Positions 3,471 to 11,385 of a DNA stretch of 12,120 nucleotides are shown piece by piece. A program made the translations under genes and the position numbers. The notes beneath the pieces were generated by a model. The model was not told the origin of the DNA. It made no database searches and saw only the letters and a list, made by a program, of their open reading frames with translations. How positions within the stretch are numbered: the stretch's first letter is position 1; each line of letters opens with the position of its first letter. Origin of the DNA: Promethearchaeota archaeon (GTDB lineage: Archaea; Asgardarchaeota; Thorarchaeia; Thorarchaeales; Thorarchaeaceae); contig JBHLPF010000066.1 of NCBI GenBank assembly GCA_048939765.1, forward strand, positions 1 to 12,120, in the 5' to 3' direction.

Positions 3471-3758
3471 TCACATTGCACGAACGGCAGCAGGTTTCTC
3501 AGTCCTTGAGCCCATAGCAACCTCTAGGTGTAGGAATGCGGCACTGAGCCGCTGAAAGTCTTTAGGAACTTGAAACTCGCCAACTCCCAGCGAGTTCAGG
3601 ACCCGTTCTATCTTCATTGGGGTCAGCTTGTGATTCCCATTTGAACTGAATGCTATAAGGACTCTAGGATCATCCGGATCTGGAATCCTGTAAACCGACT
3701 GGCAAGGAATCCCTTTATCTTCTAGACCGTGTTTTATCTTGGCCTCTAACTTGTCCAT
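3471..3758 (-). CDS. Hypothetical protein (95 aa)
   Basis: Uncontested ORF in tandem with the SDR gene; protein-like composition; no recognised motif. Confidence 0.7.
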   Translation of the reverse strand: MDKLEAKIKHGLEDKGIPCQSVYRIPDPDDPRVLIAFSSNGNHKLTPMKIERVLNSLGVGEFQVPKDFQRLSAAFLHLEVAMGSRTEKPAAVRAM

Positions 3759-3936
3759 CTTGACAATACACCAGTATTTCGTTCCGGATTAGGGTACAAA
3801 AGCACCTGTATTAACTTCGTAATACTCACAAACAGCGCCAAAATAACATAGAATTCGATTCTGGATGGCTTGCGCTGGTCATCTTCTTGATAAAGAGCCG
3901 GATGATGAAAGGTTTCGACAGTGGAGGTTGAATCAG

Positions 3937-4938
3937 TTGGATAGAGAAGGCTATCGCAATTATCTCATTGATCGAGAGCAGCCAATCCCAGAGGAGAAGA
4001 TTGGACCGGCAATTGAGATGGTCGAGAGGTTTGAGAAGTTTATCAAGAAATCAGAGAAGACTCTGGAGACCGCTGCCTCCTCTGAAGTCAACGAATTCTC
4101 CAGAATACTGATTGATGAGAAACTGAACAGCTACGATAGCTATCTTGCATTGTCCAGATATGGTCACTTTGTGAAGAACCTGGACCTCTACTTGGCAGTC
4201 CTTGAACTACTCGATGGGGCCGAGGTCATGGATGTACTCCGTGAGCGATTGGGAGAAGCAGTGGGCGAAGACAAGAGGGATGAGGTCTTTGAGGGGATAG
4301 AAGCACCACTCGGTATGCCATCTACTGAGAAGCCAAAGGTCACCAAGGCTGTCTTGGATCGAATGAAGGAATTAGTCGACCCTGAAGACTGTAAGAAAGC
4401 ACTCGTCGGCACAGCACATGGAATCCCAAAAGAGTGGTACAAGCAGGAACGGGAGAAGTTTTTGGCAGCCAAGGACATTGACGAGTATATTGCCAAGAAG
4501 AGGGAAAACGCTATCGCAGAATTGGAGAAACACAGGGACGAGTGTACACTGTTCTATAATCAAGAGATTACTGATGAGGTGGTTGAATTCGTCAAGAGTC
4601 GGCTGGATATGTTGAGTGGTATGCGTGATGGTGATAAGATTGTTCACACTAAGATTCCGTACCTCGCCAAGGAGTATCTTGCTGAAACCGATGAGAGAAA
4701 GAAGAGATACTATGCATGTCACTGTGCCTGGGCCAGGGAAACAATCATGGACGATGAGATAGATGTCCCTGCTTCCTTCTGTTATTGCAGTGGTGGGTTT
4801 ACTAAACAGCCATGGGAGGTTGCACTCGATCAGCAACTAGAAGTGAAGATGGTCAAGTCAGTTCTGAAAGGAGATATGGAGTGCACATTTGCTATTCCTT
4901 TACCGAAAGAAGTCATGGACAAAGTCGAACATTCTTGA
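3937..4938 (+). CDS. Cys-rich DUF6144/V4R-like protein with helical N-terminal domain
   Basis: YYACHC...FCYCSGGF...KSVLKGDMECTF C-terminal motif; GGAGGT at 3923-3928 points to an in-frame TTG at 3937 rather than ATG 3865. Confidence 0.75.
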   Translation: MDREGYRNYLIDREQPIPEEKIGPAIEMVERFEKFIKKSEKTLETAASSEVNEFSRILIDEKLNSYDSYLALSRYGHFVKNLDLYLAVLELLDGAEVMDVLRERLGEAVGEDKRDEVFEGIEAPLGMPSTEKPKVTKAVLDRMKELVDPEDCKKALVGTAHGIPKEWYKQEREKFLAAKDIDEYIAKKRENAIAELEKHRDECTLFYNQEITDEVVEFVKSRLDMLSGMRDGDKIVHTKIPYLAKEYLAETDERKKRYYACHCAWARETIMDDEIDVPASFCYCSGGFTKQPWEVALDQQLEVKMVKSVLKGDMECTFAIPLPKEVMDKVEHS

Positions 4939-5023
4939 GGTGTAGACCCAGGAATTTGCGGCTAGTTTCTCGTGCATTCCGAGTCTAAGTTAGATAAGAT
5001 AATCTCTCAATGGATGACATATC

Positions 5024-5563
5024 ATGACAATGAGTATTGATGGTGCCATAAAGGGTCGGAGAAGCATCAGGGACTACAAGGAGGATGAAGTTCCAGAATA
5101 CTTGATCAGGCAGATTATCGAAGCTGCAACATTTGCACCCAGCGCAAAGAATGGGCAACAGTGGAGATTCACTGTGCTGACTGGTGATTCTAAGGACAAG
5201 CTCACGAACCTGTACAGAGATAGACTGGGAAAGTTAGATTTTGATGTAGGCTCCTCCTTTGGGTCCTGCGAGATGATGGAAGAGGCTCCTGTGGTAATTA
5301 TGGTCTGGAACACAAACCAGTTTGGATGGGAAACTGAGATCCATAGCGTAGCTGCTGCCATCCAGAACCTGCTTCTCAAGGCGCATTCATTAGGACTTGG
5401 AACATGCTGGATTGGTGATATCTTCTATGCGTATAATGCAGTTATGAAGCACTTCAAGAAACCTTGGAAACTATTGGCTGCAATAACAGTGGGTTGGCCA
5501 GCAATCACCCCAGGTCCCAGATCCAGATTGACAGTTGACGAAGTGACCGAGTTCTTGGATTGA
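5024..5563 (+). CDS. Nitroreductase family protein
   Basis: RRSIRDY, APSAKNGQQWRF, AAAIQNLLLKAHSLGLGTCWIG FMN-binding motifs. Confidence 0.93.
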   Translation: MTMSIDGAIKGRRSIRDYKEDEVPEYLIRQIIEAATFAPSAKNGQQWRFTVLTGDSKDKLTNLYRDRLGKLDFDVGSSFGSCEMMEEAPVVIMVWNTNQFGWETEIHSVAAAIQNLLLKAHSLGLGTCWIGDIFYAYNAVMKHFKKPWKLLAAITVGWPAITPGPRSRLTVDEVTEFLD

Positions 5564-5579: not shown

Positions 5580-5608
5580 TGGTCAAAACGGCAGGATTTG
5601 AACCGGCA
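5580..5608 (-). pseudogene. Degenerate tRNA 3' fragment (possible att-site remnant)
   Basis: Reverse complement reads GCCGG-TTCAAAT-CCTGC-CGTTTTG-A-CCA, i.e. T-arm, 7-nt acceptor strand, discriminator and CCA; no 5' half upstream. Confidence 0.55.
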
Positions 5609-5666
5609 ATTGCCCAGAAACTCAGAGAAGGTGACTTATGAAATAATCCTAATATGCCTTACAGGC

Positions 5667-5697
5667 AGAAAAATGACAATATTATGGGCATTTTTCT
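5667..5697. promoter_or_regulatory. 31-bp imperfect palindrome (candidate operator)
   Basis: AGAAAAATGACAATA-T-TATGGGCATTTTTCT; 13 of 15 arm positions complementary, outer 9 bp perfect. Confidence 0.6.
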
Positions 5698-5699
5698 CG

Positions 5700-5750
5700 T
5701 TATAGGGCAAAAGAGGGCACTTTTATAAGCACGACTTGATAGCTAGTAAT
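5700..5750 (+). promoter_or_regulatory. Archaeal promoter (purine-rich BRE region + TATA) for the sORF-A/hypothetical/tfb unit
   Basis: TTATAGGGCAAAAGAG followed by TTTTATAA at 5721-5728; GTAAT 25 nt downstream of the TATA start. Confidence 0.65.
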
Positions 5751-5882
5751 GATTGAGAGAGTAAGTAGAGAATAAGTTCGGTTGTATTCTTGTATTGACC
5801 GATTGTGCGGTTATATTGCATTCATTGTGCGAATCCCGAAATGTCCTACTTTGGCTCTGAGCCGTATCTGAAGTGAATAGGA

Positions 5883-6044
5883 ATGACAGAAGAAGGACTA
5901 AACGCTAGATTGCCAATTACAGAATGGTTTGATATTGAGAGAAGAATGGCCATAGTGGCACGAATGACTGCAGACAGGCCCTACTTCGAAATCACAAAAC
6001 CCACAGGCTCTCCTCGAAACGATGATGACGAGGAGAAGTCGTAG
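5883..6044 (+). CDS. Unannotated small protein A (53 aa): MTEEGLNARLPITEWFDIERRMAIVARMTADRPYFEITKPTGSPRNDDDEEKS
   Basis: Hand-translated; stop abuts next start (TAG-ATG, 6042-6047); 17/23 identity to sORF-B core with synonymous codon changes. Confidence 0.85.
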   Translation: MTEEGLNARLPITEWFDIERRMAIVARMTADRPYFEITKPTGSPRNDDDEEKS

Positions 6045-6557
6045 ATGAACATCAACATTGTTCATTCAACACCATCAGAGGCTTGGAATCAGAAGCTGCC
6101 GCCAATTGGTTTCTCGCTGGATTACTCAGGAACTGCTATGACAGTTACGAAGTTTCCTGGAACCGACTGCTATCTCAGATTGTTGAGGCCACCACAAGGC
6201 TCCTTGGAGTTTGTTGTTAAGTCATACAGAAGTGAAACCCACAATCATAATACACTGAGAAATCTTATTCATGAGTTTGGCCTTGAGATTGGGTCTTCGG
6301 CGATGATGGGAAAGACCACTACAATCAGAATTGGAGAGATAGATCGCAGAGCGCGGGAGTTTGTGTCCGGAAATGGGTTATCACGTAAGAAATGGCTAGC
6401 CATGATAATCCCATCTCCTGATGGTGGCCCCTATGGGTTGCTTGTGATATTCGGTTTGTACATAGGATCCAACGGAAGTGGGAAACGCATTAGGATTTCA
6501 GAAAATCCTGTATTCAGGAAGCTAATGGACAGCTTTCAATTAACAGGTGGGCGTTAG
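6045..6557 (+). CDS. Hypothetical protein (170 aa), possibly PsbP/Mog1-like fold
   Basis: Coupled to sORF-A and 12 nt upstream of tfb; N-terminal GFSLDY strand and C-terminal FRKLMDSFQL resemble PsbP/DcrB/Mog1-type proteins (fold call is inference). Confidence 0.75.
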   Translation: MNINIVHSTPSEAWNQKLPPIGFSLDYSGTAMTVTKFPGTDCYLRLLRPPQGSLEFVVKSYRSETHNHNTLRNLIHEFGLEIGSSAMMGKTTTIRIGEIDRRAREFVSGNGLSRKKWLAMIIPSPDGGPYGLLVIFGLYIGSNGSGKRIRISENPVFRKLMDSFQLTGGR

Positions 6558-6569
6558 GAGTAGATAGAG

Positions 6570-7520
6570 ATGGCAAATTCAGTTGGACGGAAGAAGGCTC
6601 ATTTGAATAAGCCAGAAATGTGTTTGGGCTGCGGAGGGACTTCATTCACCAAGGACTATGCTCGTGCAGAACGTATCTGTACGTCGTGTGGGCTGGTTGT
6701 ATCGGAGCGTTCCGCTGACAGAGGGCCTGAATGGAGAGCCTTCACAGCAGAGGAGAGAGATGCAAGAGCGAGAACAGGGGCTCCAATGAGGCTAAGTATA
6801 GCCGATAAGGGTCTCTCGACTACAATTGACTGGCGAAACAAAGATGCGAGTGGTAGGGCATTGAAGAGCAATACGCGTGCTGCAATCTATCGATTGAGAA
6901 AATGGCATATCAGAACGAGGGTGCATAGTTCTCAACATAGGAATCTAGGTATTGCAATGAGTGAGATGGAGAGGCTCTCCTCGCAGCTCGGAATTCCGCG
7001 CGAGGCCAGAGAAACTGCAGCTCTCATATACAGGAAAGCTCTGGCAAAGAAACTGGTCAGAGGAAGAAGTATCGAGGCCGTCGTTGCAGCATCAATCTAT
7101 CTTGCTTGTAGGATTCATCGGATTCCCAGGCGGCTGGATGAAGTAGTAGCTGAGTCAAAGACTAATAGGAAGCAGGTTGGTCAAGCTGTTCGACTGGTTA
7201 TCTCTCGCGTAAATATCAACGTGCCACTTGCCTCTGCAAAAGACCTCATACCAAGACTCTCCTCTGATCTTGGTCTTGAAGGAAGAACCATGAGGAAAGC
7301 TACCGAGATAGTTAGGAGAGCCAAAGAGGGCCGAATAACCATAGGAAAGGATCCTGGTGGTATCGCGGGGGCTGCGTTGTATATAGCTGGAATACTTGAA
7401 GAAGATAAGCGGACGCAAAGGCAAATAGCGAGAGTTTCGCGAGTTACAGAAGTCACAATTCGCAACAGATACAAGGAGCTTGTCCGTTCTCTTGGAATTT
7501 CATTTGATACTGATTTGTAG
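6570..7520 (+). CDS. tfb: Transcription initiation factor IIB (TFB)
   Basis: Zn ribbon CLGC...CTSC, B-reader DRGPEWRAF, RTGAP, GLSTTI, two cyclin repeats (LVRGRSIE, GKDP), C-terminal VTEVTIRNRYKEL HTH; AGGAG RBS. Confidence 0.97.
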   Translation: MANSVGRKKAHLNKPEMCLGCGGTSFTKDYARAERICTSCGLVVSERSADRGPEWRAFTAEERDARARTGAPMRLSIADKGLSTTIDWRNKDASGRALKSNTRAAIYRLRKWHIRTRVHSSQHRNLGIAMSEMERLSSQLGIPREARETAALIYRKALAKKLVRGRSIEAVVAASIYLACRIHRIPRRLDEVVAESKTNRKQVGQAVRLVISRVNINVPLASAKDLIPRLSSDLGLEGRTMRKATEIVRRAKEGRITIGKDPGGIAGAALYIAGILEEDKRTQRQIARVSRVTEVTIRNRYKELVRSLGISFDTDL

Positions 7521-7608
7521 CCAAAGAAGACAGAAAAGACGCCCAATGAAAATGGATAGAAAAGGATTGCATTCAATGAACACCTCCATATCTGAACAGA
7601 TTCGAATC

Positions 7609-8103
7609 CTAGAGTCCCGTATATGAACCGATCAGATAAGAAAGGAAATTTACAAGCCTTGTGCGATTCTCGGAGTCTATTGCGGAAATCTCTAGAGTGG
7701 GCAGATTTGTCATTTTTTCTATGTGAGATTTGCTTAGAGACTCATCCAAGTCTTGCTTATTTGCAACAACAGCGAATCGAGTTTCAGGAAATGACTCTCT
7801 AAGAAACCTCAGAGAGTATTTGATGTGACTTACATCCTCTCTTGTGCTGTCAGTGACAATTAGCAGGTAACGATGAAATGGTCTGCTATTCCTAAGGAAG
7901 GACCTGGAGAATATTTCCAGCTTTTCAGGTGCGGAACTTGATGTCTGAAGCTCCCAAATTGCAAAGTCAAAGTTCTTGGATTTCAGCCTGGTCGCTATGC
8001 CACTACTCTCAGCTTTATCATTTAATAGGTGAATAAGTTCAGTCTTGCCTACCTGCGGCTCACCTATGATTGCTATTGCTATCTCTCTGATCGGTTCTGT
8101 CAA
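7609..8103 (-). CDS. Small Ras/Arf-like P-loop GTPase with degenerate G3 (164 aa)
   Basis: G1 GEPQVGKT, G4 NKQD, G5 SAI; G3 position reads WELQ instead of WDxxG; probable TTG start at 8103 since the ORF upstream of that overlaps ssb. Confidence 0.8.
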   Translation of the reverse strand: MTEPIREIAIAIIGEPQVGKTELIHLLNDKAESSGIATRLKSKNFDFAIWELQTSSSAPEKLEIFSRSFLRNSRPFHRYLLIVTDSTREDVSHIKYSLRFLRESFPETRFAVVANKQDLDESLSKSHIEKMTNLPTLEISAIDSENRTRLVNFLSYLIGSYTGL

Positions 8104-8158
8104 TTGTAAATTAACCCAGATTGTATTGTGTTCTATTGCTATTGACTCTAACGAACCA

Positions 8159-8193
8159 CTCCTACAACCAAATTGGTTGGATTCCTCTAGGAG
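8159..8193. repeat. Nested inverted repeat between ssb and GTPase gene
   Basis: CAACCAA-A-TTGGTTG (8165-8179) enclosed by CTCCTA (8159-8164) / TAGGAG (8188-8193). Confidence 0.55.
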
Positions 8194-8197
8194 ACTG

Positions 8198-8743
8198 CTA
8201 ATATCTCTGTCTCCTTCGACGACGATAGTCCCTTCTGTTTCTGGACGAATAGCCTCTATAGCCTCCACCACCATATCTACCACGGTCGGACCCATAAGAC
8301 CGACCGGAGTATCCTTGATAGTAGTGACGTCGTGGTCTACCATGATCAGCTTCGGACAGGTCATTGTCCATTTTGACGTCAGTGATCTCTTCCTCTCTCT
8401 CACTGATTTCACTATCTCGACTAATTTTCAGTCTGAGATTTCCTCGAAAGAGACCAGTATGTGCATTCTTCAGGACGTAGGTCTTGCCAGCCTCGAGTGC
8501 TTCTATCATGTCATTCCATAACGGAAGTGTCACAATTCCAGTTTCGTCCCCCACAATTGCGCTGGATACTCTGTTAATGCTCCCATCACGTCTGGATGTT
8601 ACTTCACGAACGTCGCCCTTTTCCAATACTTTAAAGCTGATGTCAATATTGCTCATTCTAGTTTCCAGGTTGGCGACTTTCACTTCATTACTTGCTTCGG
8701 GTTTCTCTTCAGAAGATTCAATTTCAGAATTCATTAGCATCAC
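8198..8743 (-). CDS. ssb: Single-OB-fold single-stranded nucleic-acid-binding protein (crenarchaeal SSB/RPA-like) with R/G/Y-rich tail
   Basis: KVANL, VGDETG...LPLW, LKNAHTGLFRG OB-fold pattern as in Sulfolobus SSB; start may be 8743, 8740 or 8734. Confidence 0.9.
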   Translation of the reverse strand: MMLMNSEIESSEEKPEASNEVKVANLETRMSNIDISFKVLEKGDVREVTSRRDGSINRVSSAIVGDETGIVTLPLWNDMIEALEAGKTYVLKNAHTGLFRGNLRLKISRDSEISEREEEITDVKMDNDLSEADHGRPRRHYYQGYSGRSYGSDRGRYGGGGYRGYSSRNRRDYRRRRRQRY

Positions 8744-8861
8744 AATGGTTGAACAAAGTGGCTTTTGTAGGAATTATCAACTTGGTGTGTTCTCCACTAC
8801 TAATTCGCATAGAAAATACCATTCTTTGATTCAACACTTAATGGAACAGTATAGTGGAGGA

Positions 8862-8869
8862 TATATAAA
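8862..8869 (-). promoter_or_regulatory. TATA box for the ssb/GTPase unit
   Basis: TTTATATA on the minus strand about 120 nt upstream of ssb. Confidence 0.5.
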
Positions 8870-8933
8870 TCTCAGGATAGTCCTTTAAAAGGGGAAAAGG
8901 GTCATATAAAATTCTATTTTCCCTCTTCAGGCC

Positions 8934-8981
8934 TTATAAAGGGCAAAGAGTTTTAAGCAGTCGCGGGACTCTTCGTGTAAT
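8934..8981 (+). promoter_or_regulatory. Promoter for the sORF-B/KamA unit
   Basis: TTATAAAGGGCAAAGAG followed by TTTTAAGC at 8951-8958 and GTAAT 26 nt downstream; resembles the 5700-5750 promoter. Confidence 0.6.
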
Positions 8982-9144
8982 AGCTGAAGAAAAGTAGGAA
9001 TAACCTTTGGCAGGTTAGGCAAAACCGCCTAGTGTGAATTTCCTATAATATGGAAACGCATGGAACTTGCAGAATCGATAGAACGAACCGGTCCTGATTG
9101 ATTAAGTGATGTCGATTATTCCTGCAGAAGAGATGAAAAGATAA

Positions 9145-9315
9145 ATGAGAGTAAATAAACAAGAGGAAGAGGACACTCCAATCGTAGATGATAGGAAGAG
9201 GTTAGCAGCCAGGATCCCAATCAGTGAATGGGATGATATCGAACGGAGAATGGCAATTATCTCAAGAATGTCCACAGAGCCTGCCAGAGAGAGTAGTCAG
9301 GGCGTGGGTTCTTGA
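9145..9315 (+). CDS. Unannotated small protein B (56 aa): MRVNKQEEEDTPIVDDRKRLAARIPISEWDDIERRMAIISRMSTEPARESSQGVGS
   Basis: Hand-translated; TGA overlaps the TTG start of the KamA-family gene (TTGA, 9312-9315); paralog of sORF-A. Confidence 0.85.
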   Translation: MRVNKQEEEDTPIVDDRKRLAARIPISEWDDIERRMAIISRMSTEPARESSQGVGS

Positions 9316-10415
9316 GCCACGCTCTAGACGGGGATGAATTAATCACCTCCGTCGATGAGATTGGAGAGATTCTGGATCTTACTGAGCCCGAAGAAAGAAT
9401 TCTCGATCGTTTGATTGAGATGCATCCAATTCGTGTTCCTGAGTATTATTTCTCCTTAATAGATGAACAAGACCCAGAGGATCCAATAAGGAAAATGGCA
9501 CTTCCTAGTAGTACCGAATCAATTGCAGAGGGTTCATACGACACTAGCGGAGAACTTTCCAACACGATTCTACCTGGCTTGCAGCATAAATACAAACAGA
9601 CTGCTTTGATTCTTGCCACCGCCGAGTGTGCAATGTACTGCCGACATTGTTTCAGAAAGAGACTTGTCGGACTGCCAAGTCAAGAGATTCTAAGAGATGT
9701 GGATGCAGCTGTGGAGTACATCAGGAACCATAAAGAGATCAATAATGTACTCATCACTGGCGGGGATCCTTTCACTCTAAGCACTTCCCGGATAGGCAAT
9801 CTACTTGACGTGCTTTCAACAGTCGCTCATTTAGACTTCATTAGGTTTGGTTCGCGCATCCCTGTAACGTATCCTATGCGTATTCTGCATGATAATGAAC
9901 TATTAGAAGTCTTGAGAAACTACTCGAAGGCGTTTAGAAGATTATTTCTAGTGACACAATTCAATCATCCAAGGGAAATAACTGAAGAATCTATGGCTGC
10001 AGTTGATCGGTTGATGTCAGCTGGTGTGATTGTAAATAACCAGACAGTCCTCCTGAAGGGAGTGAACGACGACCCAGATGTATTGGCTGCTCTTCAGAAC
10101 AGACTTGTTGGTATTGGGGTGAACCCATACTACATGTTTCAGTGCCGCCCTGTTGCTAGAGTGAAGAAGACCTTTCAAGTTTCCCTCTTCGATGGATATC
10201 AGATTGTTGAGGGAGCAAAGAAACTCCTCAATGGTCACAGTAAACGATTCAGATATATAATGTCCCACCACACTGGCAAAATCGAGATTCTTGGGATACT
10301 TGACGGAAAATTCCTCTTCAAGTATCATCAGGCAAAGAATTCCAGTGATCAGGGTAGAATCTTCACAAGAAAACTGGATAGAACTGCTACATGGCTGGAC
10401 GACTTGAAAGCGTAG
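9312..10415 (+). CDS. KamA family radical SAM aminomutase-like protein
   Basis: GLQHKY, CAMYCRHCFRKR (CxxxCxxC), ITGGDP, FNHPRE, NQTVLLKGVND, PYY, TGK (PLP lysine position). Confidence 0.92.
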   Translation: MSHALDGDELITSVDEIGEILDLTEPEERILDRLIEMHPIRVPEYYFSLIDEQDPEDPIRKMALPSSTESIAEGSYDTSGELSNTILPGLQHKYKQTALILATAECAMYCRHCFRKRLVGLPSQEILRDVDAAVEYIRNHKEINNVLITGGDPFTLSTSRIGNLLDVLSTVAHLDFIRFGSRIPVTYPMRILHDNELLEVLRNYSKAFRRLFLVTQFNHPREITEESMAAVDRLMSAGVIVNNQTVLLKGVNDDPDVLAALQNRLVGIGVNPYYMFQCRPVARVKKTFQVSLFDGYQIVEGAKKLLNGHSKRFRYIMSHHTGKIEILGILDGKFLFKYHQAKNSSDQGRIFTRKLDRTATWLDDLKA

Positions 10416-10449: not shown

Positions 10450-11385
10450 TCATGACCAGTATGGTTTTCGGATATACTTGTAGGCATTATGAGCGGCTAG
10501 CGCTCCTTGTGCTGCAGCGACAGAGGCTAACTGGTATACTGATATGATATCTCCGGCAGCAAAAATGCCTTCTACACTTGTTCTCATTTCATGATCAACG
10601 ATAACATAGCGGCCATTCATTTTCAGACCTAAGTGTTCAAACACTTCTGTGTTCGGGACTAGACCAACAGCGATTATTACGCGATCTATGGCCATATCAA
10701 ACTTCTTTCCAGTTTGATTATTGAGAAGAGTGACTTCTTCAACTTCCGAGTCACCTCTAATCTCCTGAAGTTCAGTGTTATAGAGAACCTCAGCCATCTT
10801 TTCAGTCAGAATTTTATCAACTGTTGTTTCCGCCGCTCTAAACTCATCTTTTCTGTGTGCAATCCAAATCTCATCAGTCACTTTGTGCGCATCTACAACA
10901 GCATCTAGTGCTGTATCACCACCACCTATGATTAACACCCTCTTATCACGGAAGAGCTCAGGATTGGACAAATATGGAAACACGCCGCGACCTTTCCTAG
11001 AGAATTCAATCTCGCCAGGGATTCCCAATATATTTGGACGCATACCTGTTGCGATAATCACGACTTTCGATTTGTATTCATGGTCCGTAGTGGCGATATT
11101 TCGATTCGTGGAGATTCTGGTAACGCGTTCTTTGACAAGATGGACCCCTAAGTCTGCAGCTTGACGAACCCATTCGGCAACCAGATGCGTGGCTAGTACA
11201 CTTGGAGCGCCGGGGTAGTTAAACACATGCTTGTATGGGTAGATTGTGGACATAAGACCGCCCCAAGTGCCACCTTCGAAAACAATTGTCTTGAGACCCT
11301 TGTATGCAGCTATGATTCCTGCAGACAGTCCTGCGGGACCTCCTCCAACAATAGAAACATCATATTCTACTTTTGAATCTGCCAG
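10450..11385 (-). CDS. TrxR-type FAD/NADPH oxidoreductase lacking CxxC (YumC-like ferredoxin/flavodoxin-NADP+ reductase), 311 aa
   Basis: The frame extends upstream of ATG 11253 through YDVSIVGGGPAG; IATG, GGGDTA, HRK, FAAGD; GVFPYL replaces CxxC; probable CTG start at 11385 with GGTGA 8 nt upstream. Confidence 0.88.
   Translation of the reverse strand: MADSKVEYDVSIVGGGPAGLSAGIIAAYKGLKTIVFEGGTWGGLMSTIYPYKHVFNYPGAPSVLATHLVAEWVRQAADLGVHLVKERVTRISTNRNIATTDHEYKSKVVIIATGMRPNILGIPGEIEFSRKGRGVFPYLSNPELFRDKRVLIIGGGDTALDAVVDAHKVTDEIWIAHRKDEFRAAETTVDKILTEKMAEVLYNTELQEIRGDSEVEEVTLLNNQTGKKFDMAIDRVIIAVGLVPNTEVFEHLGLKMNGRYVIVDHEMRTSVEGIFAAGDIISVYQLASVAAAQGALAAHNAYKYIRKPYWS

Follow-up and report, generated by a model that had tools for sequence, protein, structure and literature searches.

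A lineage-specific TFB duplicate, a paired micro-protein family and a leader hairpin in a probable tRNA-Tyr island cassette of Thorarchaeota

Multiple paralogs of transcription factor B (TFB) are known from the Haloarchaea (TfbA-G), and the Sulfolobales possess TFB3. Here we describe a related factor, TFB-X, which is encoded between positions 5,580 and 10,415 of a 12,120-base window. This window is the whole of contig C34 in a metagenome-assembled genome from Thorarchaeota, which has a size of 3.37 Mb and a completeness of 88.5%. The stretch comprises three transcription units, namely a micro-protein gene (sORF-A) followed by hyp170 and the TFB-X gene (unit A), the genes for an SSB paralog and an Arf-like GTPase (the ssb-GTPase unit), and a second micro-protein gene (sORF-B) followed by a gene for a KamA-like radical SAM enzyme (unit B). 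Unit A is almost certainly a single operon, because its genes are separated by gaps of 0 and 12 nt. As in the Haloarchaea and Sulfolobales, several TFBs are encoded per genome, and TFB-X is likewise a lineage-restricted, faster-evolving duplicate that could, by analogy, direct transcription from a subset of promoters. Whereas TFB3 of the Sulfolobales is truncated, TFB-X has retained the full zinc ribbon and both cyclin repeats, and it differs from TfbA-G and TFB3 by its location in a tRNA-linked island, behind the genes for a micro-protein and a PsbP-like protein. A first-pass annotation of the window had proposed the three units as a candidate module under shared control.

The stretch also resembles integrative elements that accrete in tandem at tRNA genes, in that direct repeats of a tRNA 3' half lie between variable gene blocks. 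However, no integrase was found in the DNA examined, TFB-X is of chromosomal descent, and the micro-proteins and hyp170 have no relatives in IMG/VR. TFB homologs are carried by Asgard viruses and mobile elements (bioRxiv 10.1101/2021.07.29.453957), but TFB-X clusters with cellular Thorarchaeal TFBs and no viral hallmark genes are present. Unit B is reminiscent of translated leaders and of 5' regions of the riboswitch or attenuator type, since a long conserved leader with a covarying hairpin and a short open reading frame (ORF) precede an enzyme gene; it is unlike these systems in that it has no Rfam match and in that its peptide is elsewhere fused to a protein domain. Taking the evidence as a whole, we consider it probable that the stretch is the cargo of an island cassette at tRNA-Tyr, and that this cargo is possibly co-regulated.

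This view is supported by tRNA remnants at the borders of gene modules. The conserved block GGATTTGAACCGG upstream of sORF-A corresponds to the T-arm and acceptor of tRNA-Tyr, and the decayed copy at the left border of the cassette (Table 1) aligns with positions 48-69 of the intact tRNA-Tyr of a relative, G005. ARAGORN detected no tRNA in the window, and Rfam gave no match at 5588-5609. Half-copies were seen in seven relatives (G005, G015, G001, G004, G012, G013 and G086) as well as in the window, and those in G005, G001, G004, G012 and G013 are found at the position corresponding to that in the window but are longer, measuring 27-49 nt. They lie ahead of sORF-A in G001, G004 and G012, and between the nitroreductase gene and the gene for a further TFB duplicate (TFB') in G013. 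In G005, half-copies in direct repeat flank a block that consists of the flavodiiron (FDP) gene, TrxR, KamA-sORFB, SSB-GTPase and TFB-X-hyp170-sORFA, one of the two being situated just beyond the flavodiiron gene; the tRNA-Tyr gene itself is found one module further on. An intact tRNA-Tyr is located at or near TFB-X in five genomes of genus g5, the sister of the genus that contains the window (g1). Across the relatives, the locus thus shows direct repeats of the 3' part of a tRNA at module borders together with variable gene content, as in tRNA-linked islands. As half-copies separate some of the gene blocks in which the relatives differ, we regard the stretch as part of one cassette of a variable tRNA-Tyr island. 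It would represent the left five kilobases of such a cassette in Thorarchaeota of the two sister genera, beginning at the decayed tRNA-Tyr 3' half and ending, in the best-preserved relative, at the half-copy past the flavodiiron gene. Its genes would then be found together mainly through inheritance, gain and loss as island modules. A separate module with an octopine-dehydrogenase-like gene and a B12-binding/methylaspartate-mutase-like gene was observed between the tRNA-Tyr gene and the first half-copy in G005 (locus L044, 623-3486) and between TFB-X and hyp170 in G086 (locus L146, 3419-6282).

The members of the stretch are linked in both genera. Within g1, the sORF-A/hyp170/TFB-X trio recurs in eight other genomes and ssb(-GTPase) in five, while the sORF-B/KamA pair recurs in about nine genomes, one of which (G020) belongs to g5. 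TFB-X is located 1.7-4.2 kb from sORF-KamA in 6/12 g5 genomes and is convergently adjacent to it in a seventh, G020; the GTPase gene is nearby in several genomes of this genus. The TFB paralogs, the SSB paralog, the GTPase and sORF-KamA remain near each other in the two genera, and their order and orientation change. The linkage expected from the first-pass annotation was therefore observed, but unrelated flank genes (hyp357, hyp95, SDR and TrxR-like) are just as syntenic. In view of this equal synteny and of the variable tRNA-Tyr island, the linkage is no proof of shared control, and co-inheritance in an island cassette is its simplest account. One could go further and assume plain synteny by descent between two closely related genera, with the micro-ORFs as ordinary small genes and neither a functional nor a mobile unit. 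Indeed, DinB, SIS, SDR, hyp95 and hyp357 occur in the same order beside TFB-X and KamA in G020, G054 and G079. We nevertheless judge this to be quite unlikely, because the order and orientation of the blocks change repeatedly while the members stay together, because differences in content coincide with tRNA-Tyr half-copies, and because a micro-ORF is found directly upstream of 24/24 KamA-like orthologs or fragments across three genera (g1, g5 and g7; coordinates crossed).

Relatives also hold additional genes in this neighbourhood, which were not found in the genome of the window. They encode an OsmY-like protein with three BON-domain repeats, a conserved protein of 93 aa and a membrane protein of 307-313 aa, and are present in locus L043 at 9275-9934 (minus), 10075-10356 (plus) and 8291-9214 (plus), respectively. 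The three are recurrent members, which were also seen in L045 and in g5 loci.

The identification of TFB-X as an archaeal TFB of the TFIIB family is based on its score of 410.7 bits with NF001658 (cut-off 384), a zinc ribbon (PF08271, 57.8 bits) and two cyclin-like TFIIB repeats (PF00382, 132.4 bits in two stretches). The genome encodes six full TFBs. A quick IQ-TREE search with 51 TFBs from eleven Asgard genomes resolved four old Thorarchaeal clades, and placed TFB-X in a 100%-supported subclade nested inside one of these. The stem of this subclade has a length of 0.63, as compared to 0.016-0.28 for the branches of the adjoining orthologs; each of the six members of the family that the tree includes has such an ortholog. 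Applying the matching threshold, we found TFB-X in 12/16 genomes of g1 and 19/28 of g5, and in 0 of 15 other genera searched. Judged from these sequence comparisons, TFB-X is a fast-evolving duplicate found in two genera only, and with other TFBs in the genome and a narrower distribution than the core copy it probably serves as an accessory rather than a general initiation factor. The alternative TFB of the first-pass annotation is thereby supported: TFB-X cannot be a sole housekeeping TFB, because the genome has six TFBs and TFB-X is lineage-specific. The neighbourhood in relatives holds two further duplicates that were not found in the genome of the window, namely TFB' (X'), which is about 82% identical, and TFB-Y, a member of a different clade with about 50% identity. 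In genus g5, the SSB paralog is directly followed by a co-directional TFB-Y gene in an operon-like arrangement in 6/6 loci (L141, L142, L146, L151, L154 and L155).

Table 1. Features of the studied stretch and its right-hand neighbours in the window.
Feature	Position	Strand	Evidence or remark
Decayed tRNA-Tyr 3' half (T-arm and acceptor), left cassette border	5588-5609	minus	95% identity over 22 nt
Predicted promoter of unit A: TTATAGGG box, GCAAAAGAG purine block, TTTTATAAG box	5700-5729	plus	Conservation
Predicted leader of unit A, about 132 nt	5751-5882	plus	Blocks conserved across 9 genomes
sORF-A, micro-protein of 53 aa	5883-6044	plus	Paralog of sORF-B
hyp170, PsbP/Mog1/DcrB-like fold	6045-6557	plus	Start abuts sORF-A stop (TAGATG)
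TFB-X, full-length lineage-specific TFB paralog	6570-7520	plus	12 nt after hyp170
Arf-like small GTPase, 164 aa	7609-8103	minus	PF00025, 26.1 bits vs cut-off of 22.3
Single-OB SSB paralog with RG-rich basic tail	8198-8743	minus	PF21473, 50.5 bits vs cut-off of 24
Candidate TATA box of the ssb-GTPase unit, ATTTATATAT	8861-8870	minus	Predicted ssb leader of about 95 nt
Predicted promoter of unit B: CTTATAAAGGG box, GCAAAGAG, TTTTAAGC box	8933-8958	plus	Conservation
Predicted leader of unit B, about 165 nt	8980-9144	plus	AAGTAGGAATAA at 8992-9003
Leader hairpin of unit B, 29-nt loop holding GTCCTGATT	9073-9117	plus	Covariation
sORF-B, micro-protein of 56 aa	9145-9315	plus	Stop overlaps KamA-like start by 4 nt
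KamA-family radical SAM aminomutase-like enzyme	9312-10415	plus	TIGR00238, 243.3 bits vs cut-off of 199.2
TrxR-like (thioredoxin-reductase-like) gene	10450-11253	minus	Pfam
Flavodiiron-type protein, flavodoxin-domain part, cut at contig end	11389-12120	minus	Pfam

Two intergenic regions of the window stand out by their length: 319 nt ahead of sORF-A and 401 nt between ssb and sORF-B, as compared to at most 135 nt for all remaining gaps. We aligned these regions from 9 orthologous loci or genomes (A) and 8 genomes (B), and predicted the lengths of the leaders from conserved TATA-like boxes by the usual archaeal spacing between TATA box and transcription start. In unit A, the box is located at 5721-5729 and its CAC(T/C)(T/C)TTATAAG core is near-invariant in the 9 loci; the leader contains the blocks AAGTAGAGAATAA (5763-5775), a 13-mer that is unique in the genome, and GTCCTACTT (5843-5851). 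For unit B the candidate boxes are 8951-8958 or 8933-8943, giving a leader of 165-183 nt accordingly, and TTTTAAGC is invariant in the 8 genomes, two of which have no adjoining ssb. Loci with ssb opposite sORF-B share a conserved block, ATAAATCTCAGGATA. By their conservation and position, the boxes of unit A, unit B and ssb would function as TATA boxes. Leaders of approximately 100-165 nt, as proposed in the first-pass annotation, agree broadly with these predictions, except that the left end of the stretch is the tRNA-Tyr remnant and not leader. Likewise, the divergent control region of ssb and sORF-B does exist in seven genomes of the same genus, and the ssb-GTPase unit would have this region in common with unit B, but the promoter and leader of sORF-B are also kept where ssb is not the neighbour (G013, G003 and genus g5).

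The leader of unit B contains a real, hitherto undescribed RNA element. The hairpin of this KamA-type leader is situated 16-33 nt before the ATG and has a loop of a constant 25-30 nt with the motif UCCU[AG][AC]UU, whereas its stems differ in sequence between lineages and genera. In g5, in an alignment that was fitted to the structure, compensatory changes were found in 6/8 pairs and 90% of the cells pair; 0/500 shuffles reached the observed score, and the pairing collapsed when the partners were slid. A covariance model of the g1 hairpins (R2) found one significant copy in the genome of the window and had no match to the leader of unit A, and a model of the g5 hairpins (R1) found neither the g1 hairpins nor anything in this genome. 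A loose scan of the genome for a hairpin with the motif gave stems of at least 8 bp at 4.6% of 1331 motif sites and of at least 10 bp at 0.7%, which is too unspecific for a regulon test and was used as background only. The 5' motif AAGUAGGA may pair with the loop motif UCCUACUU, but the central position is without covariation in g5. Rfam yielded no family match in the window at E-values up to 1. The hairpin probably acts in cis as an RNA control element.

The micro-proteins encoded by sORF-A and sORF-B are paralogs (55% identity across 38 aa, E = 2e-13) and the only two copies in the genome. Their family is characterised by the core hPhxxWxxhERxxAhhxRMTxExP. A set of 5.8 billion proteins contains 74 clusters of it at 90% identity, and a set of 1.84 billion contains 37 representatives. 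The source labels of all 74 clusters, as those of the homologs in general, are Thorarchaeota or related Asgard names. No Pfam or NCBIfam domain was detected in the micro-proteins, and searches with 25 of them at E-values up to 10 gave nothing consistent. Differences between the micro-ORFs fall mainly on third codon positions (5468, vs 3147 and 1677 at the other two), and the micro-ORFs are therefore coding genes under purifying selection. A micro-protein is present in 44/87 genomes of the class, usually in one copy and in g1 in two or three. Besides its pairing with KamA-like genes, the micro-ORF is located upstream of about 14/26 hyp170 relatives, which are the closer ones. In other genera it is located behind a Fwd-type operon, or overlaps with the beginning of a gene for an M29 peptidase. 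Free-standing copies were found in G019, where no co-directional gene follows, and in G021, where a methyltransferase gene follows 116 nt on.

Some individual loci show diverged forms. In L054 (G023; 9100-10097, plus), a 35-aa micro-ORF overlaps the M29 peptidase gene start by 4 nt, and this peptidase has no counterpart to the first 55 positions of its Pfam profile, in which it resembles the KamA-like enzyme without its N-terminus. In L047 (G007, 12907-13292) and L048 (G011, 1202-1602), fragments of KamA-like genes still have an intact, diverged micro-ORF ahead. In L146 (G086; 6749-6907, plus), a 52-aa ORF overlaps the hyp170 start by 4 nt; it resembles a strongly diverged micro-protein (W..EL..LRM) that the family profile misses.

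A finding that bears on the role of the micro-protein is its fusion to hyp170. The micro-protein core is fused in frame to the hyp170 domain in the protein P0114 (226 aa; hhalign 99.9%) and in the genome G048, where the fused gene (L149, about 4350-5030, plus) encodes the core, a linker of about 20 aa and a hyp170-family domain, in all 226-232 aa. The fusion was found in one genus; a word-index search detected no fused forms and an exhaustive search detected one. The fusion argues for a peptide that acts jointly with hyp170 and at the protein level, and against a purely cis-acting leader peptide. Although hyp170 has no Pfam or NCBIfam sequence family, its AlphaFold2 model (pLDDT 89.2, pTM 0.87) matched PsbP, CyanoP, Mog1, DcrB and Eag/SciW in Foldseek with TM-scores of 0.5-0.57 and a probability of 1.00. 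It thereby shares the PsbP/Mog1p/DcrB/Eag (DUF1795) fold, several proteins of which serve as a binding scaffold or chaperone, with helices or the small GTPase Ran as ligands, and differs from these proteins in belonging to no sequence family. The micro-protein itself was modelled as a single amphipathic helix (residues 26-43); compared with a ribbon-helix-helix protein, it shows this one long helix and no second conserved helix in a model of pLDDT 60. We infer that the micro-protein is a short amphipathic helix and the polypeptide partner of the protein encoded after it, and the gene order and the one fusion suggest that this helix may bind to hyp170.

These observations also bear on the idea that the micro-ORFs are conserved-peptide upstream ORFs (uORFs), the translation of which would control the downstream gene in cis in concert with the hairpin while the peptide has no role of its own. 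It is true that the micro-ORF always lies upstream of, and co-directional with, a larger gene, that its stop overlaps or abuts the next start in g1, and that the leader is structured, its loop motif being complementary to a motif further upstream. Yet in-frame fusion to hyp170 in two sequences, the free-standing copies in G019 and G021, and the distance of 58-228 nt between the micro-protein profile match and the KamA match in g5 are hard to reconcile with a peptide that acts only in cis, and we find this idea scarcely credible. Other origins of the micro-protein were considered and rejected. A split-off KamA N-terminus was suggested by the shortened N-terminus of the enzyme, but was judged unsupported: no KamA model touches the micro-proteins, and the likeness seen by eye to the N-terminus of lysine 2,3-aminomutase (LAM) was limited to a W-[ND]-D motif. 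A role as precursor of a ribosomally synthesised peptide (RiPP) found no support, and the micro-protein is also paired with a protein that is not an enzyme and occurs by itself where the enzyme is missing from the genome.

We then considered the regulation of the units. The upstream regions of units A and B have collinear motifs, namely a TTATA(A)RGG box, RCAAAGAG, a second T/A-rich box, AAGTAG(A)GAATAA and, nearer the ATG, UCCUACUU. AAGTAG(A)GAATAA lies 42 nt (A) and 41 nt (B) from the second box. In five pairwise alignments of A and B against dinucleotide shuffles, z-scores of 2.3, 5.3, 0.2, 2.7 and 1.8 were obtained. A joint A+B profile retrieved only the two known sites from the genome, and the ssb upstream region has no detected motif in common with A. 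Accordingly, there is no element upstream of every unit that is detectable as a family, and, as neither element has a further copy in the genome, no wider regulon was found. Units A and B would descend from one duplicated cassette of promoter, long leader and micro-ORF, and by this common origin they may still respond to the same signal. Co-regulation of the two micro-protein units is thus possible, even though the case for unit A sharing the control of unit B, as far as can be judged from sequence, is weak.

A true regulatory module, as put forward in the first-pass annotation, would require more: a stress or state signal would induce all three units via a shared promoter or leader, TFB-X would redirect RNA polymerase, and the micro-proteins would act in feedback. 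Such a module would fit the lineage-specific, fast-evolving extra TFB, the three separate TFB duplicates in the neighbourhood (X, X' and Y, with SSB followed by TFB-Y in all six g5 loci), the collinear motifs at equal spacing of 41-42 nt, and stress-flavoured cargo in relatives (BON/OsmY-like, flavodiiron and TrxR-like). What makes us doubt it is that the genome showed no third occurrence of either the promoter/leader profile or the hairpin, that the similarity of A and B is statistically weak and the ssb upstream region stands apart, that the fusion to hyp170 suggests a structural partner instead of a DNA-binding regulator, that the micro-protein occurs in genera without TFB-X and the KamA-like gene, and that the flank genes are as syntenic as the proposed members. 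Of the interpretation given in the first-pass annotation, the accessory TFB is therefore retained, shared regulation is kept as a possibility for the two micro-protein units, and a circuit between TFB and micro-proteins is unsupported, the fusion pointing to a protein partner instead.

The reading that we prefer, an island cassette with possibly co-regulated cargo, has to be weighed against several findings. No integrase or recombinase was identified among the ORFs scanned with Pfam, which covered part of each island, and no right-hand repeat is visible in the window, in which the contig ends at 12120 inside the cassette. The nesting of TFB-X among chromosomal TFBs leaves an element origin of the cargo without support, and, in line with the lack of IMG/VR relatives, a mobile-element origin was set aside. 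With respect to co-regulation, the profile (nhmmer) and covariance models trained on A miss B and the reverse, and the hairpin model of B has no match in the A leader; the case for co-regulation of the two units rests on short motifs, the similarity of A and B being modest. Lastly, the single-helix model of the micro-protein is of low confidence (pLDDT 60). If the cassette reading is nevertheless extended as far as the data would permit, the micro-protein could be a detachable regulatory helix that gates two partners, a PsbP/Mog1-like adaptor that shares its transcript with an accessory TFB and a KamA-type aminomutase, from a leader-RNA-controlled cassette, and an integrase-free tRNA-Tyr island could spread a transcription-reprogramming switch among Thorarchaeota. 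This extension is a long shot.

The gene identities of the first-pass annotation (TFB, SSB-like OB protein, Arf-like GTPase and KamA-family radical SAM enzyme) were confirmed with Pfam and NCBIfam; of its description of the stretch, the GTPase start and the left-edge leader had to be corrected. The KamA-like gene is single-copy in the genome. In common with the KamA family (lysine, glutamate and arginine 2,3-aminomutases and EpmB), its product matches the family-level model and has the CxxxCxxC cluster motif, in the form CAMYCRHC. The enzyme differs from that family in several respects. It stays below every equivalog cut-off (lysine 2,3-aminomutase, glutamate and arginine aminomutases and EpmB, with scores against cut-offs of 248.7/650, 233.9/525.4, 232.1/600 and 194.3/369.3 bits), it lacks the first 17 or so residues of lysine 2,3-aminomutase (2A5H), the only solved relative found (E = 7.6e-61), and a micro-ORF is always ahead of its gene. 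Moreover, an Arg is aligned with the lysine-binding Asp293 of 2A5H. The enzyme is therefore not assigned as a lysine equivalog; it is probably not lysine-specific and may act on another, perhaps acidic, substrate.

The SSB paralog has the single OB domain of archaeal SSB proteins but does not reach the NCBIfam equivalogs (88.7 vs 188); five Ssb-like OB genes, this one included, exceed the cut-off in the genome. The GTPase ORF was originally listed with 267 aa because the first-start rule extends it too far, into the 3' end of ssb. In G005 and G015 the N-terminal part has a broken frame or is detached, and the ortholog in G012 has an ATG start at the position of TTG 8103, so that the gene is confined to 7609-8103 with TTG 8103 as its start. 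The best solved relatives of the GTPase are Arl1 and Arf1, and the motifs G1 (GEPQVGKT), G4 (NKQD) and G5 (SAI) are present. In place of the DxxG that defines G3 in canonical Arf-like small GTPases it has WELQTSS, which is invariant in 7 orthologs from three genera at 54-96% identity. By this comparison, the GTPase is a conserved non-canonical protein and not a decaying one. Elsewhere in the genome of the window (G000), a weak Ssb-like OB match approximately 1 kb from a paralog of this GTPase, on contig C87 (40193-41960, minus), echoes the pairing of the two genes.

The remaining genes of the window were assigned with Pfam and NCBIfam to an alpha/beta hydrolase, DinB, a SIS protein, an SDR and a nitroreductase (5024-5563); two were left without assignment. 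The latter, hyp95 (3471-3758, minus, 95 aa) and hyp357 (3865-4938, plus, 357 aa), are conserved and syntenic with the island flank in three genera. The gene cut by the contig end encodes the C-terminal two thirds of a flavodiiron-type protein; its 396-aa ortholog in G005 has ODP beta-lactamase and flavodoxin domains.

Of all known organisms, the Asgard archaea are the most closely related to eukaryotes, and to our knowledge nothing is known experimentally about the use of their many TFB paralogs. The present locus offers a concrete case in which a young TFB duplicate was born and reshuffled inside a tRNA-linked island. Its gene is predicted to lie on one transcript with those of a hitherto undescribed micro-protein and of a protein with a PsbP/Mog1-like fold, and the enzyme encoded next to it was never seen without a micro-ORF ahead. 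If the micro-protein, the leader and TFB-X do act together, they would represent a new kind of archaeal switch. Otherwise, the locus still contributes a family of micro-proteins that is new, a leader hairpin with covariation and a conserved GTPase that has no DxxG motif.

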